DNA of 64,000 nucleotides from positions 74,594 to 138,593 of IMG/VR virus record IMGVR_UViG_3300025617_000007. One strand, written 5' to 3'. Under the pieces are notes generated by a model. It had not been told where the DNA came from and did not search any database. It was given only the letters and a program-made list of their open reading frames with translations. Source of the stretch: a virus. This document shows positions 54,804-64,000 of the stretch, one piece after another (within the stretch, counting starts at the first letter, position 1; each line of letters begins with the position of its first letter). A program made the translations under genes and the position numbers.

Positions 54804-56822
54804 ATGATAGAATCAGTAGACCCTAATGAAAAAGGTGGACGTAAGTCTAAAGATGTAAGTAATTCTAAAACACCTGTTTTAGATAACTTTTCACGTGACT
54901 TGATTAAACATGCGGAACAGGGTAAGTTAGACCCAGTGGTTGGTCGTGAACGAGAGATTAACCGAATCGCACAAATTCTTTCTCGTAGGAAGAAAAATAA
55001 CCCTATTATTATTGGGGAACCTGGTGCAGGTAAGACAGCAATTGTTGAAGGTCTTGCTATGAAAATTTTTGAGGGTGATTGTCCTCAAAATCTATGTGAT
55101 AAAAGAATAGTATCATTAGATATGACTTCGATTGTTGCGGGGACCAAATATCGAGGACAATTCGAAGAACGACTTAAAGTGATTTTGGATGAACTATACG
55201 AAAATCCTGATATTATTGTTTTTATCGATGAGATTCACACTATTATAGGTGCTGGAAATTCTTCAGGTTCTTTAGATGCCTCTAATATCTTTAAACCCGC
55301 ATTGGCACGTGGAGAACTTCAATGTATCGGAGCAACGACTATCGATGAGTATCGTGAGAATATTGAGAAGGATGGAGCTCTTGAGCGTCGTTTTCAAAAA
55401 GTAGTTGTGGATGGTGCAACTCCTGATGAAACAATGGAAATCTTACAAAACTTAAAGTCTCGTTACGAAGAACACCACAAAGTTTCTTACTCGGATGAAT
55501 CGTTACAGGCGTGTGTATCCTTAGCGGATAGATATATTACAGATAGAGAATTCCCTGATAAGGCAATTGACATTATGGATGAGGTAGGAGCAAGAGCACA
55601 GATTAATGTTAAATTACCAGAGTCGATTGAGAAATTAAAAGAAGAAGCGTCTTTAATTAAAGATGAGAAAATACAGGTAGTTAAGTCTCAAAAATATGAA
55701 AAGGCAGCTGAGTTACGTGATAAGGAGAAGAAAATTCTTAAGAAACTTGAAGATGAGAAACTAAGGTTTGAGAAAGAGAAAAACAATAGTCGTAAACCGA
55801 TTACTGAAGATATGGTATATGACGTAGTTGCAACTATGACTAAAATACCCGTCAATAAATTAAACTCGGATGATAAGGAATCACTACTTAGTTTAGAAAA
55901 TAATCTAAACAGTAAAGTTATCGGACAGGAAGGTGCAGTTAAAAAGATTTCAAAGGCAATCCGTAGAAACCGAGTAGGTATTAAGGACCCTAACCGTCCA
56001 ATCGGTTCATTCATCTTCTTAGGTTCAACGGGTATTGGTAAAACTCACTTGGCCAAGCAATTGGCGAAAGAAATCTTCGGAGATGAAGAATCACTTATCC
56101 GTATGGATATGAGTGAATACCAAGAGAAATACACAATGTCTCGTTTGATTGGTTCTCCTCCGGGATATGTAGGTCACGACCAAGGGGGGCAACTTACCGA
56201 AGCGGTTAAAAACAAACCTTACTCAGTGGTATTGTTTGATGAGATTGAAAAGGCAAATAAAGACATCTTCTCATTGTTACTTCAGATGATGGACGATGGT
56301 CACTTAACCGATAGTTTCGGTCGTAAAATCAACTTCAAGAACTGTTTGATTATTATGACATCTAACTTAGGTGTGAAGAAACTACAGGACTTTGGAACAG
56401 GAGTTGGTTTTGACACTAATAATAGAATGTCAAACGATGAAGAGATGAAAAAGACGCTCTTACAAAAAGAGTTAAAGAATCATTTCACTCCTGAGTTTTT
56501 AAACCGTGTGGACGAAGTAGTAGTATTTAATCCACTTAAAGAAACTGAGGTTCGTAAGATTGTTGACATTGAATTGATGAAACTAACTGACCGATTAGAG
56601 AACATGAACTATAACATTACTATTTCGGATGAAGTTAAAGATTTCATATCAAAAGTAGGGTTTGATGAGAAGTATGGGGCAAGACCTATCAAGAGAGCGA
56701 TTCAAGAGAAGATTGAAGACCTAATTTCTGAGGAAGTGTTAAGAGGTACCATTAGTGAAGAACAATCATTTACGGTGGTAATGAAAGATGATGAAGAGTT
56801 AGAAATAAAAGAAGGGAATTAA
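54804..56822 (+). CDS. clpC: ClpC-type AAA+ unfoldase lacking the N-terminal Clp repeat domain
   Basis: Two AAA modules ([13 protein letters not shown]; [14 protein letters not shown]), UVR-type M-domain (YEKAAELRD), ClpP-docking VGF loop. Confidence 0.85.
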
Positions 56823-56888
56823 TTTCCTTCTTTTATTAGGAAAGTCCTAATAAAACCTTTATATTTGTTGACTAATAAAATTATAAAC

Positions 56889-57944
56889 ATGGAAAAAACA
56901 CAACTTAACAGACTCAAAGACGTATTGTCCGTACCGACAAAAACATATCAGGAAGATAATATGGTTAACTATATACGAGAAGTATTAGATACTATTCCTG
57001 GTGTAAAATATTACACAGATGATATGGATAATGTATATGCCACTAAAGGGGTGTTAAGTGAAAGCGAATACTATCCAATGTTTATCGCACATACAGATAC
57101 CGTTCATCAATTAGTTGACCAAATTATAGTCAAAGAAGAGATGTTAATTAAACCGAATACTTTTGGGGTTAAATTTAATGACCAATCTTTTTTATCTTTA
57201 AAGGGTTACACCTCCGATGATAACCCAACAGGTATTGGTGGTGATGATAAATGTGGCGTGTTTTTGGCCTTAGAATTACTTCTTACATTACCTAAAGTAA
57301 AGGTAGGTTTATTTGTGTCTGAGGAAACTGGTTGTCACGGGTCTAGCAAATGTGACCCTAACTTTTTAAAAGATGTTGGTTACGCAATTCAATTTGACGC
57401 ACCAGGTAATTCTTTAATAACTGAAGTGTGTTCGGGAACAAGACTGTATGAGAAAGATGGGGAGTTCATTAACCTAATTAAACCCTTATTTGAGGAATCT
57501 ATGGAGGTCGTATCAGATGAACAATCACACCCATATACGGATGTTTCACAAATTAAAAGAAAGGGTGATTTTAGTTGTATTAACTTCTCTTGTGGGTATT
57601 ACAATATGCACACCAAAGATGAGTTTGTAGTTGTCGATGATATGGAACGAGCACTCGCTTTTGCAATAGAATCTGTATCAGTATTAGGTCTTAATAAATA
57701 CCGATACGAATACCAACAACCTACATGGAAGTCGTATGGGGATTTGTTTGATGTTAATGATTTTGACGATGACACTCTATTTGAAGATGAAATCGACATG
57801 GAAAGACTAACCGTTACTACCTCAGATGAGGGTATGACAATCGAATCAAAGTTTACTGGAGATATGGTTATGTTAGATAATGAAGAAATGTTAGAGATAT
57901 ATGAAGTTATTAGGGACCAACTAATTAGTAAATTAACTTATTAA
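56889..57944 (+). CDS. Zinc metallopeptidase, M20/M28/M42 clan
   Basis: AHTDTV, GGDDKCG, EETGCHG, QFDAPG, GYYNMHT; TATATTTG at 56860. Confidence 0.8.
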   Translation: MEKTQLNRLKDVLSVPTKTYQEDNMVNYIREVLDTIPGVKYYTDDMDNVYATKGVLSESEYYPMFIAHTDTVHQLVDQIIVKEEMLIKPNTFGVKFNDQSFLSLKGYTSDDNPTGIGGDDKCGVFLALELLLTLPKVKVGLFVSEETGCHGSSKCDPNFLKDVGYAIQFDAPGNSLITEVCSGTRLYEKDGEFINLIKPLFEESMEVVSDEQSHPYTDVSQIKRKGDFSCINFSCGYYNMHTKDEFVVVDDMERALAFAIESVSVLGLNKYRYEYQQPTWKSYGDLFDVNDFDDDTLFEDEIDMERLTVTTSDEGMTIESKFTGDMVMLDNEEMLEIYEVIRDQLISKLTY

Positions 57945-60513: not shown

Positions 60514-61773
60514 TTAAAATATTGGACACAATGTAGTACCTACATTTTTCGAACTACCACCTTTAAATCTAAACGTTGGTGGTATAAATTTAATTTTAGT
60601 CTTACCTCTCTTATAAGCCGAAACAGTAATTATAAACCCATCACCTCCACTAATTGTAGGTTGTGATGTAATGTCGTCCGATTCTTTGATTCTAGGTATA
60701 ACTGCAAATGTTATGATGACTTTAGCTTGTTGAGCATCTAAGTAATCTTTATGTTGTGAACCTTTATTCCTGTCCCAATCAGGTCCTGATGTTCCATCAC
60801 CATTCTCACCTTTAGCATTGATACTCTCAGTGAAGTCTTTTGCTATTACTATGTTTTTAGAGTTACTATCAAGGTATTTCTTAACCATATTCATCATAGA
60901 TTTAGCTCTATCTTCAGAAAGTCTTAAGAAACCTTCAGTATCGTTAGGGTCTTTAGGGTTAGTAGTGTACGGTGCAGGTAATTTACTTTGTGGGACTTTT
61001 GACGATGATGACACTATAGTAATATCCTTTATTAAGTATCTACCAGGAAATGTAACACTACTATCGGTGTTATTTTTTATCATAGATTTTCTATTCTCTT
61101 CTAATATTTTTGTAAATATTGAATCAAACTGAGCAATATACTCAGTTTTTAAGTTAGGTGAACCCGTTGCAAATTTATTACCTAAAGGTATGTCTGAATC
61201 TGAAAACACCATTTTAGGTACTTCCACTTGTCCACCTGGTTTCGCTTCTGACTTTTGAGTTTTAGTGTTATCTACTATAACCGAACGAGTATCACGTTTA
61301 GTACGTTCAAATGCATCCATTAGACTTTCTGATGATTTAACAACATAAGCGTAAAATGCTGGATTAATCTCTTTTGAACTATCCATAATCGATTTAGACT
61401 CCTCATCCATCATACTATATAGTTTATTAAACATTTTAAGTCTTTTCTTACCTAAATCAGTGGTAACTAACTTATACTCTTTAAGTCCTTCTGAATTTTT
61501 AGTACCACTTTCTGAAGAAATATATATTTGAGCCGTGTAAAGTGCCCACTGTAACTCTGTTGGCTCTGGCGATATCACAGCACTTTTATCGTCCCATTTT
61601 TGTTTTTTAACCGCAATTTTATCAACAAGTTTGTCGTAATTATCGTCTTCGGTACTTCTGGTTCTATCCATGTCATAACCACCTCGAGTTGTTTTTTTGA
61701 AACTCTGTTCCTTTATTACGTTTTTAACGATAATCTTTAAATCGTTTTCAGTTAACCTTATAACATTTTTCAT
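60514..61773 (-). CDS. RLTENDL-leader protein with OmpA-C-like domain
   Basis: MKNVIRLTENDLKIIVKNVIKEQ; KFATGS...ITIVSSSS...LSEDRAKSM...YL. Confidence 0.55.
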   Translation of the reverse strand: MKNVIRLTENDLKIIVKNVIKEQSFKKTTRGGYDMDRTRSTEDDNYDKLVDKIAVKKQKWDDKSAVISPEPTELQWALYTAQIYISSESGTKNSEGLKEYKLVTTDLGKKRLKMFNKLYSMMDEESKSIMDSSKEINPAFYAYVVKSSESLMDAFERTKRDTRSVIVDNTKTQKSEAKPGGQVEVPKMVFSDSDIPLGNKFATGSPNLKTEYIAQFDSIFTKILEENRKSMIKNNTDSSVTFPGRYLIKDITIVSSSSKVPQSKLPAPYTTNPKDPNDTEGFLRLSEDRAKSMMNMVKKYLDSNSKNIVIAKDFTESINAKGENGDGTSGPDWDRNKGSQHKDYLDAQQAKVIITFAVIPRIKESDDITSQPTISGGDGFIITVSAYKRGKTKIKFIPPTFRFKGGSSKNVGTTLCPIF

Positions 61774-61801
61774 ATTTTCTTATTTTTACTATTATAAATA
61801 G

Positions 61802-61832
61802 TTGTTTACTACAAAAAAAGTATTTATATTTG
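61802..61832 (+). promoter_or_regulatory. ssrA promoter region
   Basis: TTG-N20-TATATTTG, overlapped by TATTTATA at 61821-61828. Confidence 0.6.
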
Positions 61833-61956
61833 TATTCAGAAACAAAGGTTCTTTGAAATTATGGGGGTGAATGGAATTGATTGGCAGGGTCAGTTGCACG
61901 GGGCACGTAGTGAGATGTTATCTATCACTTTAATCTATGATGGCAATTTTGTAATC

Positions 61957-62022
61957 GGCGAAACTTTCGCAAAACTTCAGGCAGTAGGTCTCCTACGTAC
62001 TGAAGAAGTAGCTGTAGCGTAA
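61957..62022 (+). other. tmRNA tag reading frame GETFAKLQAVGLLRTEEVAVA*
   Basis: Resume context TGTAATC|GGC GAA ACT resembles the WATARNY consensus and Bacteroidota GE(T/N) tags; an alternative resume at GGC 61942 is in the same frame. Confidence 0.75.
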
Positions 62023-62231
62023 GACGTTAACAGTGAATCGGGTCGGTCAGGACATGTACCTATGAACAGAAGTCCGTTGTTGTGGTGGAAAAACGATTAA
62101 ACCCTAAATTGAGTCGTACATCTATTGGTGATGGAGGATGTAAAAATTCAATCACATATTTCGGAACATTGTGAACTAATGTTGACCTAAACGTGTAGTC
62201 CTTTGTAGGTGGACTGAACAAGACGCGGGTT

Positions 62232-62456
62232 TAACAGGGGACCCATTCAATAGTGATATTGAATTAAAAATCGGATGAATTGCTGGAACGCTAAGTCGGA
62301 AACGATACGCCAATCAGCAGCCAAGTCTAAGATACATCTTAGAAAGGTTCAGAGACTAGTGGAGAGATAGAGTTCTCTTAATAACCACATTAGCGTCCGA
62401 CATCTCAATGAGATGATGATATAGTCCATACAGTATAGAAATATATTGAGTATATG
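62232..62456 (+). ncRNA. ORF-less group I intron (IA-like, 225 nt) in the tmRNA T-loop
   Basis: P1 GGGTT/GACCC with U.G at the 5' splice site; P AATTGCTGGAA, Q AATCAGCAG, R TCAGAGACTA, S GATATAGTCC; P3 TCGGATG/CGTCCGA; P8 CATCTC/GAGATG; extra hairpin between P7 and P3'; terminal G. Confidence 0.93.
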
Positions 62457-62474
62457 CGAAACCCGCCACCTCCA

Positions 62475-62879
62475 CTACTGGGAGAAGAAGGATAAAACCA
62501 TCTTCTCCCTTTTTTCTTTCATGTCGTCAGTATACTTACCATTTCTTGGTGTCAGTTTAATGTACTGTTCGGTAACTATCGTTTTCCTATGTTTCTTTTT
62601 AGGATGATAACTATTGACATGTTTTATAACCGATAATGCGCTGTTATATTTGTAAGTTAAATCATAACTGTCTGAATGGGTTTCTTTTCTTGCCGGTTTC
62701 TTAACTATATGTCCTTTAACGTTAATTTCCAATAATATAAAATCTCTAATAGATTCTAATAATTCTTTTTCTACGTTAGTGAACCCAACGACTACTGTCT
62801 TATTTTTATTTTTATTCGGACTAACCATTGTGATATAACCATCAGCATCAAAAAATCCAGATATATAATTCCAATTCAT
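62475..62879 (-). mobile_element. Free-standing single-motif LAGLIDADG homing endonuclease gene
   Basis: YISGFFDADGYI; beta-strand VVVGFTN; 134 aa; its TAG stop occupies the tmRNA CCA position; TATTTATA at 62893-62900. Confidence 0.85.
62480..62515 (+). terminator. ssrA terminator embedded in the 3' end of the endonuclease gene
   Basis: GGGAGAAGA...TCTTCTCCC followed by T6. Confidence 0.75.
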
Positions 62880-62944
62880 AATAATATTTTATTATAAATA
62901 TGTGGAGGTGAAGTAAATTACTAACTTCTCTAAAAAATATTATT

Positions 62945-62975
62945 TTTGTGGTTTAAATAAAAAAAACTATATTTG
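62945..62975 (+). promoter_or_regulatory. Bacteroidota-type promoter (tandem copy 1)
   Basis: TTTG-N19-TATATTTG. Confidence 0.65.
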
Positions 62976-63058
62976 TAATGGTGCCTTTATAAATTCTATA
63001 TTTTTTCGTTTTATTTAAACATAAATAGAAATTACAGTTGATTATTCCAATAATAATG

Positions 63059-63089
63059 TTGTGGATTTATAAAATTTACCTTATATTTG
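63059..63089 (+). promoter_or_regulatory. Bacteroidota-type promoter (tandem copy 2)
   Basis: TTG-N20-TATATTTG. Confidence 0.65.
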
Positions 63090-63130
63090 TATTGTCAATA
63101 AGGACATAAACCACTAAAAAAAAATAAATC

Positions 63131-63880
63131 ATGACAGTAACGGGAATCAACATCGAGGAAAAAGTAAGAAACTACCAAGGACAGAGTAATTTTATCAACA
63201 ACCTAAAGACAGGTCTACAAAAGTACGGTCGTCTAACACCAAAACAATTTGAAGCTGCAAAAAAAGTAATTATGAACGATGAGCGTAAAAAAGACATTAA
63301 TATCGAAGAACTTCCAACTAACCTTAGAGCAATTGTTGAGTACACAGGAGAGTCTAATTTTGTTAACGACTTAAAAATGAAGTACAAAAAGTACCGTCAG
63401 CTTACTGAAAAACAAATATCTGCAGGTTACAAAGCTATTGACCGTGAAATTCAAAAAGACTCACAAAAAGACTTAAACCTTCGATTAGTAGGGAATACTA
63501 TCAAAATCGGACGTAAAGTCGCAATGGGTATCAAAGAGAATTACGACTTAGATTTCCACCCAATTTTGGTTGATGTTACTGAAGTGATGACCATCTCAAA
63601 TAAAGCTTTCAAATTGAAGGCGAAACTCACAAAAGAAAACGGTGGTATTTGTCGTTGTTGCGGTAGAACTCTTACAGACGAAATGTCTCAGGTTACAGGA
63701 ATCGGACCGGTATGTGCTAGATATGTTGGAGTTAAACACCCAAAAAATGTGAAAGAAGTTGAAAAATTCAAAGAAGACATGTCAAACAAAATTGACGAAA
63801 TCGGAGAATTTGAGTTTTGGATTCCAAAAAGAGCAATTGTACAGTGGAACGGAACGGCAGGTGTCATGATGAGATGGTAA
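63131..63880 (+). CDS. Protein with DUF6011-like zinc ribbon
   Basis: CRCCGRTLTDEMSQVTGIGPVCA; duplicated N-terminal F(I/V)N(N/D)LK...KY..LT.KQ helix module. Confidence 0.65.
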   Translation: MTVTGINIEEKVRNYQGQSNFINNLKTGLQKYGRLTPKQFEAAKKVIMNDERKKDINIEELPTNLRAIVEYTGESNFVNDLKMKYKKYRQLTEKQISAGYKAIDREIQKDSQKDLNLRLVGNTIKIGRKVAMGIKENYDLDFHPILVDVTEVMTISNKAFKLKAKLTKENGGICRCCGRTLTDEMSQVTGIGPVCARYVGVKHPKNVKEVEKFKEDMSNKIDEIGEFEFWIPKRAIVQWNGTAGVMMRW

Positions 63881-63911: not shown

Positions 63912-64000
63912 AATTTACACATTAGTGGTGGTTATAATTGGTTAAAATTATATGAGCACCATTACAAATATAGTTTTTTTTTATTTAAATCACAAAAATA

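Follow-up and report, generated by a model that had tools for sequence, protein, structure and literature searches.

Can a tmRNA gene carried by a phage be interrupted in its T-loop by a self-splicing intron and still give rise to a functional RNA? This question is raised by a locus in an IMG/VR virus record of 138.6 kb (~46% complete according to CheckV), the last 64 kb of which were analyzed here and are referred to below as the window. A preliminary description, made from the sequence alone, had placed a group I intron at positions 62232-62456, in the T-loop of a phage tmRNA gene. These coordinates proved to be exact, as judged by Rfam (101.4 bits), by ARAGORN and by comparison with L014, a related viral contig that carries the gene uninterrupted. 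Judging from the locus and its relatives, we regard a functional, spliced phage tmRNA of the intron form as its probable product (probability roughly 0.85). The features of the locus are as follows.

61825..61834, + strand: promoter-like motif TATATTTGTA, 29 nt upstream of the mature 5' end; promoter role presumed
61863..62231, + strand: tmRNA exon 1 with 5' acceptor strand GGGGGUG, tag frame, pseudoknot region, 5' half of the T-arm and T-loop UU (ARAGORN on the spliced sequence)
61957..62022, + strand: tag frame GGC...GCG TAA, encoding GETFAKLQAVGLLRTEEVAVA* (ARAGORN)
62232..62456, + strand: ORF-less group I intron of 225 nt with P7.1/P7.2 extensions (Rfam, helices, covariation, absence from L014)
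62457..62477, + strand: tmRNA exon 2 with T-loop CGAAA, 3' strand of the T-stem, acceptor CACCUCC, discriminator A62474 and CUA
62475..62879, - strand: free-standing gene for a single-domain LAGLIDADG homing endonuclease of 134 aa, convergent with the tmRNA gene (Pfam)
62480..62515, + strand: terminator-like hairpin followed by a U run
62523..63055, no strand assigned: block of 533 bp absent from L014, containing most of the endonuclease gene (blastn)

The interrupted tmRNA gene

In the raw window, ARAGORN detected neither a tRNA nor a tmRNA. With the Rfam tmRNA model (RF00023), the unspliced window likewise gave nothing, even at E values up to 10. The preliminary description had proposed to apply both tools to the spliced sequence. 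With 62232-62456 excised, ARAGORN indeed reported a 388-nt tmRNA starting at 61863 with the tag GETFAKLQAVGLLRTEEVAVA. For the tmRNA model the outcome was mixed, as the score obtained (71.5 bits, cut-off 47) is that of the intron-less orthologue L014, versus none for the unspliced window. A complete T-arm, GCGGG-UUCGAAA-CCCGC (5-bp stem, 7-nt loop), is present only once 62232-62456 is excised. This restoration had been claimed before and was confirmed by direct inspection of the sequence: exon 1 ends ...GACGCGGGTT at 62231, and exon 2 begins CGAAACCCGCCACCTCCA at 62457 and can be aligned to the 3' ends of relatives that lack the intron.

The acceptor stem consists of 7 bp (GGGGGUG, 61863-61869, with CACCUCC, 62467-62473), contains a G3.U70 pair and is followed by the discriminator A at 62474. 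G3.U70 is the alanine identity pair. The 3' end encoded in the gene is CUA (62475-62477) and not CCA, which is found in L014; note that CCA addition can be enzymatic, so an encoded CCA is no strict requirement. Downstream of exon 2, the hairpin at 62480-62515 folds at -17.9 kcal/mol (z -3.4) and is conserved in L014. It was missed by a simple terminator scan owing to one internal mismatch.

The motif TATATTTGTA upstream of the gene is enriched in the window (5 copies observed versus 0.9 expected; none of 100 shuffles reached 5). The copies start at 61825, 62645, 62968 and 63082 on the + strand and at 63963 on the - strand, and they include sites upstream of the tmRNA gene and of the ORF starting at 63131. 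The -7 promoter box of Bacteroidota is TAnnTTTG; TATATTTGTA resembles it and is a putative promoter element.

The group I intron

The Rfam Intron_gpI model (RF00028) matches at 62222-62448 on the + strand with 101.4 bits (cut-off 50, E 4e-25), so the covariance model that had been suggested as a check does fit. Helices P1, P2, P3, P4, P5/5a, P6/6a, P7, P7.1/7.2, P8 and P9 can all be drawn. The intron lies at internucleotide subsite 3 of the T-loop (UU|CGAAA). U62231, the last base of exon 1, forms a wobble pair with G62240 in P1, and the terminal base of the intron is G62456. Eight bases separate the end of the Rfam alignment (G62448) from G62456, and only the latter rebuilds the 7-nt T-loop; as no alternative choice does so, the intron boundaries are unique. 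P10 is restricted to a single pair, and no convincing pairing could be drawn for it.

The fold was examined in an alignment of 13 related phage tmRNA introns, with the pairing partners slid by 1-3 columns as control. Standard pairs occupy 88.3% of the paired cells (32-43% in the slid controls), 33 of 69 pairs are changed on both sides (9-18 in the controls), and the covariation score is 0.331 compared to at most 0.103. Pairing is complete (100%) in P4 and P6a, where four and five pairs, respectively, are changed on both sides; it reaches 98.7% in P8, and P7 does not vary. The P1 U.G pair, P3, P4, P7, P8, P9 and the terminal G, which the preliminary description had listed, could all be mapped, and the helices are supported by covariation. 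As read from this alignment, the compensatory changes show selection on the predicted ribozyme fold. The U.G wobble involves the second U in the nine subsite-3 introns (UU|CGAA) and the first U in the four subsite-2 introns (U|UCGAA). It thus shifts by one base together with the 3' splice site, i.e., the 5' and 3' splice sites move together.

In two members of the family, L071 and the intron of the GenBank phage LR756501.1 (L030, ~718,150-718,400), the last intron base maps as A and not as G. Decay of these introns is one possible explanation, use of a non-canonical 3' splice site another.

Intron-less alleles and verification of the assembly

Intron-less relatives were found by scanning viral contigs for the exon-2 sequence; another pattern, written for intron-less alleles, also matches the 3' halves of tRNAs. 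The intron-less loci L014, L002, L008, L009 and L015 score 71-98 bits with the Rfam tmRNA model. These alleles align across both whole exons and break exactly at 62231|62457. L014 and the window share 85% identity in the promoter region plus exon 1 and 90% in exon 2 plus the terminator, and positions 2628 and 2627 of L014 are adjacent where the window carries the 225-nt insert. As this related viral contig has the gene uninterrupted, the insertion is exact to the base. According to blastn, 62457-62522 of the window correspond to 2627-2559 of L014 and 63056-63864 to 2543-1734. In L014, the terminator is directly followed by the homologue of the ORF at 63131-63880, and both the intron and the block 62523-63055 are missing.

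In a DNA sequencing run (X1), a 318-nt contig (62202-62519) crosses both intron junctions without differences, which excludes misassembly. A second branch of lower depth departs from exon 1 at 62231 and continues CGAATCCCGCCACCTCCACCA. As this run contains intron-bearing and intron-less branches at 62231, an intron-less relative co-occurs in the sample. The two alleles differ in exon 2, which is CGAAACCCGCCACCUCCACUA in the window and CGAAUCCC...CCA in the co-occurring intron-less allele.

The neighboring LAGLIDADG endonuclease

The gene convergent with the tmRNA gene encodes a LAGLIDADG enzyme (Pfam LAGLIDADG_3, 33.7 bits, cut-off 22.5; LAGLIDADG_1, 24.9 bits, also above its cut-off). The motif ISGFFDADG is invariant in five homologues, and a profile built from these five matches only LAGLIDADG enzymes in the PDB. 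The AlphaFold model (pLDDT 91) has an alpha-beta-beta-alpha-beta-beta-alpha fold, for which Foldseek retrieved single domains of I-OnuI, the homodimeric I-CreI, I-MsoI and I-TnaI, and also I-Vdi141I (probability 1.00, query TM 0.5-0.73). The PHROGs label of 62475-62879 is 'HNH endonuclease', which we regard as a naming error. The preliminary description had not connected the intron with this gene. The stop codon TAG of this gene is the complement of the terminal CUA of the tmRNA gene, and the change from CCA (as in L014) to CUA closes the nuclease frame.

All five homologues among the fetched loci (L023-L026 and L154) lie inside or directly after tmRNA T-loop introns. In L023, the intron is at subsite 2 and the nuclease gene is free-standing downstream, as in the window. 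In L024, L025 and L026, the introns are at subsites 3, 7 and 8, respectively, and the nuclease gene is located inside the intron, after P9 and in antisense. The same arrangement is found in the subsite-2 intron of L154, a contig of an Anaerolinea metagenome-assembled genome (MAG). The family thus exists in two states, intron-internal and antisense (L024-L026, L154) or free-standing after the gene (the window, L023 and a remnant in the Bacteroidia genome G057, see below). The antisense position inside an intron is an unusual orientation for intron-borne homing endonuclease genes. Furthermore, four other intron-bearing phage loci (L010, L108, L048 and L059) have an endonuclease of the Endo VII/HNH type (phrog_3322) directly after the tmRNA gene. 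No nuclease gene but ordinary genes follow the tmRNA gene in the intron-less loci L014, L002 and L008, and the intron-bearing L082 and L098 have no nuclease nearby. At 62902-62910, upstream of the nuclease gene, 9 nt of the tmRNA 3' end recur in inverted orientation; this copy was dismissed as being at chance level in an A+T-rich stretch.

In collaborative homing, a free-standing nuclease targets the site that is occupied by an ORF-less intron (PMC3984707, PMC2790892, PMC6083498). Examples are the psbA intron of cyanophage S-PM2 with the free-standing F-CphI (PMC6083498) and mobE of T4 with the nrdB intron (PMC2790892); they are reviewed in PMC3984707. By analogy, the nuclease gene and the ORF-less intron of the window suggest collaborative homing, as the nuclease gene adjoins the interrupted gene and, like the intron, is absent from L014. 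In contrast to the S-PM2 and T4 pairs, the host gene is here a structural RNA gene and not a protein gene, and the nuclease is a LAGLIDADG enzyme; the Endo VII/HNH-type nucleases of the four sister loci are like F-CphI. The LAGLIDADG enzyme would cut the T-arm region of intron-less tmRNA alleles in co-infecting relatives, and repair templated on the phage genome would copy the intron and the nuclease gene across. As the intron splits the target site, the phage's own genome would be protected.

As the relatives found are consistently associated with tmRNA T-loop introns, we predict the T-arm to be the target, and we think it somewhat more probable than an even chance that the enzyme recognizes the T-arm and drives or maintains the intron. 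Alternatively, the intron and the nuclease gene may be unrelated neighbors, the nuclease homing into an intergenic site after the tmRNA gene and not into the T-arm. The many intron-bearing loci without a LAGLIDADG nuclease would fit this view. However, every relative of the nuclease among the fetched loci is situated in or after a tmRNA T-loop intron, as is the remnant in G057, and the gene lies within the intron itself in three of the phage loci and in L154 from the Anaerolinea MAG. We therefore consider independent homing into the intergenic region unlikely.

The tag and the fate of the RNA

The tag comprises 21 residues and ends with VAVA, which is atypical. The relatives have related tags (GETFAKLQAVGLLRTEEVTVA, GNTIDKLQAVGLLRTEEVTVA and others), and the differences in the alignment include synonymous ones; the frame is conserved as protein. 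The resume codon, the frame and the stop are conserved among the relatives, which argues for translation of the tag.

On the strength of the gene's sequence, we infer splicing and trans-translation to proceed in the following way. Transcription would start at ~61835 and extend to the hairpin at 62480-62515. Guanosine would attack after U62231, at the P1 U.G wobble, and G62456 would mark the 3' splice site, so that the 225-nt ribozyme would excise itself; ligation of UU to CGAAA would then rebuild the T-loop. End trimming, CCA addition (CUA being encoded) and charging with alanine through G3.U70 would fall to enzymes of the host. Together with host SmpB, the tmRNA would rescue stalled ribosomes and add the 21-residue tag. 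No match to SmpB (PF01668) was found anywhere in the 138-kb record (~46% complete), and this partner is presumably supplied by the host. Other phage tmRNAs (e.g., the mycobacteriophage entries of the tmRNA database) are likewise carried by the phage and rely on the SmpB of the host. The phage tmRNAs named in the literature examined are standard or tag-less, whereas that of the window is of the intron form.

A ClpC/ClpA-type double-AAA ATPase (AAA, AAA_2, ClpB_D2-small and UVR motif) and an M42-like peptidase are encoded at 54804-57944, 5-7 kb upstream of the tmRNA gene. This unfoldase of the phage might read the long VAVA-ended tag. The spliced RNA could therefore serve a purpose other than classical rescue and degradation, either competing with the host tmRNA or routing tagged products to the phage ATPase. 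The atypical tag and the position of the ATPase gene 5 kb upstream are in line with such a role, as is the tmRNA-like RNA of phage DS6A, which inhibits the host tmRNA as cited in the tmRNA database paper (PMC11915505). Against it speak the conserved resume codon, frame and stop, and the fact that no ClpP was found in the 138-kb record. We give a non-classical role a low probability, about one chance in five, and prefer a tmRNA that acts in ribosome rescue.

Three RNA libraries of marine or estuarine origin, from three studies, contain contigs near-identical to exon 1. When the contigs of three metatranscriptome runs were compared with positions 61700-62600, they covered exon 1 and ended at 62211 or earlier, and one low-depth contig (X11) extended from 62204 into the intron. 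The ligated junction GGGUU|CGAAA, for which the preliminary description had suggested to look, was not found, as no contig of the three runs joins 62231 to 62457. Note that these data are contigs, and missing intron coverage or a contrast in depth counts neither for nor against splicing.

Could the intron have lost its activity, leaving the tmRNA gene a pseudogene disabled by a selfish insertion? This view draws on the missing junction among the RNA contigs, on the weak P10 and on the A at the last intron position of L071 and L030, which implies that decay occurs in the family. The core helices are, however, all intact, and the Rfam score of the intron is as high as any in its family. Moreover, the compensatory changes speak for selection on the fold, the exons, acceptor stem, G3.U70 pair and tag frame are conserved compared to the intron-less relatives, and exon 1 is present in RNA libraries. 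We therefore regard a dead intron as very improbable and an intron that splices as the far better reading.

Distribution and origin

Among the phage genes of the window are those for a portal protein and a phage-type DNA polymerase, and the genes flanking the tmRNA show synteny with other viral contigs. The 419-aa ORF at 60514-61773, which flanks the tmRNA gene, had no relatives in a search of viral contigs. The source of the tmRNA locus is a large marine phage, in agreement with the phage origin assumed at the outset, which is borne out by the IMG/VR record and by the portal and polymerase genes.

Relatives were searched for with a strict pattern comprising the 3' strand of P7, up to 33 nt, and the 3' half of the T-arm with the acceptor strand. 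A looser version (GATATAGTC...CGAWWCCC) had been abandoned for this tightened one, as ~70 of the 80 loci fetched with it were chance matches. The strict pattern occurs in 28 IMG/VR contigs besides that of the window. Among the 14 newly fetched contigs, 13 have an Intron_gpI match above the cut-off at the expected place, and the fourteenth is cut by the end of the locus. Of the relatives that were spliced in silico, most are called as tmRNAs by ARAGORN and have related long tags. Many viral contigs contain members of this tmRNA clade, whose long tags follow ...GLL...V.VA, often next to phage tRNA arrays. The GenBank uncultured phage LR756501 (735 kb) also carries an intron-form tmRNA, which is not annotated. 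When the locus was compared by blastn with GenBank phages, the intron part alone matched, mostly to introns of protein or tRNA genes (terminase, psbA, tRNA-CAU); the closest is the psbA intron of S-PM2 (78.5% identity over 161 nt), the classic case of collaborative homing.

A similarly strict pattern gave two true cases in 185,579 bacterial and archaeal species, represented by one genome each. The first is the Anaerolinea MAG contig L154. The second (L177, JBBACR010000001.1) is a contig of 425,361 bp with a subsite-3 intron-form tmRNA, which is filed in a 'Candidatus Pacearchaeota' MAG. IMG/VR lists a contig of this length as viral (IMGVR_UViG_3300035208_004923, L204), and the MAG contig probably belongs to a huge phage that was assigned to an archaeon in binning. 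The Anaerolinea MAG (G004; loci L154 and L187) has a standard tmRNA on one contig, and the subsite-2 intron form with the antisense LAGLIDADG gene on a separate 6-kb contig, which may come from a phage or from another organism.

Among 401 Bacteroidia genomes searched with the intron of the window, one (G057) has a homologous subsite-3 intron. BLAST matched 156 nt of it to the intron of the window at 73% identity, and the two introns can be aligned throughout their length. The G057 intron interrupts the only above-cut-off tmRNA match of the genome, so this tmRNA can mature only if the intron is removed. The opposite strand past the terminator contains a remnant of 43 codons with 46% identity to the C-terminus of the window's endonuclease, and no intact nuclease gene is present there.

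That the stretch is bacterial, the contig being misclassified or chimeric and the tmRNA gene that of a host, can be considered most implausible: although subsite-3 introns are catalogued in Bacteroidia only (PMC11915505) and the homologous intron of G057 is accompanied by what is left of the same nuclease, the portal and polymerase genes in an IMG/VR record, the long-tag clade in viral contigs near phage tRNA arrays, the synteny of the flanking genes and the 28 viral contigs versus two species genomes all contradict it.

Two further observations concern RNA genes in phage genomes. GOLLD RNA genes (288-321 bits) are located within a few kb of the intron-form tmRNAs on the viral contigs L206, L208 and L212. 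In Escherichia phage Turkey5 (PQ471516.1, ~289,050-289,350; L027), an unannotated tRNA(CAU) gene has a group I intron in the anticodon loop and is followed by an annotated HNH homing endonuclease gene.

Relationship to known intron-form tmRNAs

The preliminary description had named the T-loop intron of Clostridium botulinum tmRNA as the known precedent. This was correct, but the background is far larger. The tmRNA database of 2025 (PMC11915505) contains 883 intron-form sequences, every one of which carries its intron in the T-loop, at subsites 7 (the main one), 8, 2 and 3; the C. botulinum intron is cited there as the original case. The C. botulinum intron and the main subsite-7 class are likewise T-loop group I introns and differ from that of the window by the subsite (7, not 3) and by their occurrence mostly in Bacillota. 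Subsite 3 is recorded in Bacteroidia only, with 9 instances (PMC11915505, Supplementary Table 2). This form shares with the window the position of the intron between T-loop nucleotides 2 and 3, the U at -1 in a U.G wobble, the terminal G and the rebuilding of the T-loop by splicing. The gene of the window differs in being phage-borne and in its 21-residue tag, compared to the usual short tags of Bacteroidota. Furthermore, its nuclease gene is intact, whereas that of G057 is a remnant.

RefSeq viruses were screened for the database as well, and its text gives the intron forms by bacterial phylum, without mention of phage ones (PMC11915505). Our literature search found no paper describing an intron-form tmRNA in phages, in keeping with the earlier remark that no phage ssrA intron was known. 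The gene is therefore a phage-borne member of a catalogued gene form, and the novelty lies in its occurrence in phages, not in tmRNA. A Bacteroidota host fits the data, as the gene is closest, among the known kinds, to the subsite-3 intron form of Bacteroidia and TATATTTGTA, an enriched motif, lies upstream of the gene.

Implications for phage tmRNAs

As both ARAGORN and the Rfam tmRNA model miss the gene, the tmRNAs of phages are underestimated, with LR756501 as an example. The predominance of viral contigs over species genomes, one of the two latter being listed in IMG/VR as viral, alters the reading of the entries in the bacterial catalogue. The homologous intron and the nuclease remnant in a Bacteroidia chromosome provide a possible link to the host. 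With a single-domain LAGLIDADG gene that is still intact, next to a small structural RNA gene whose intron contains no ORF, the locus offers a compact natural system for studying collaborative homing and the idea of protection by introns.

Taken together, these data may be read, if only tentatively and at somewhat less than even odds, as showing the T-arm of phage tmRNA to be a battleground of selfish nucleases. It would be the target of two or more unrelated families (LAGLIDADG, Endo VII/HNH type), and the related group I introns at subsites 2, 3, 7 and 8 would represent a protection that is made harmless by splicing. On this view, tmRNA introns at subsites 2 and 3 would have their main reservoir in phages and not in bacteria, and the few cases in Bacteroidia would be spill-over between phage and host. 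This wider picture, with phages as the main home of these introns and several nuclease families gathered at the T-arm, is testable.
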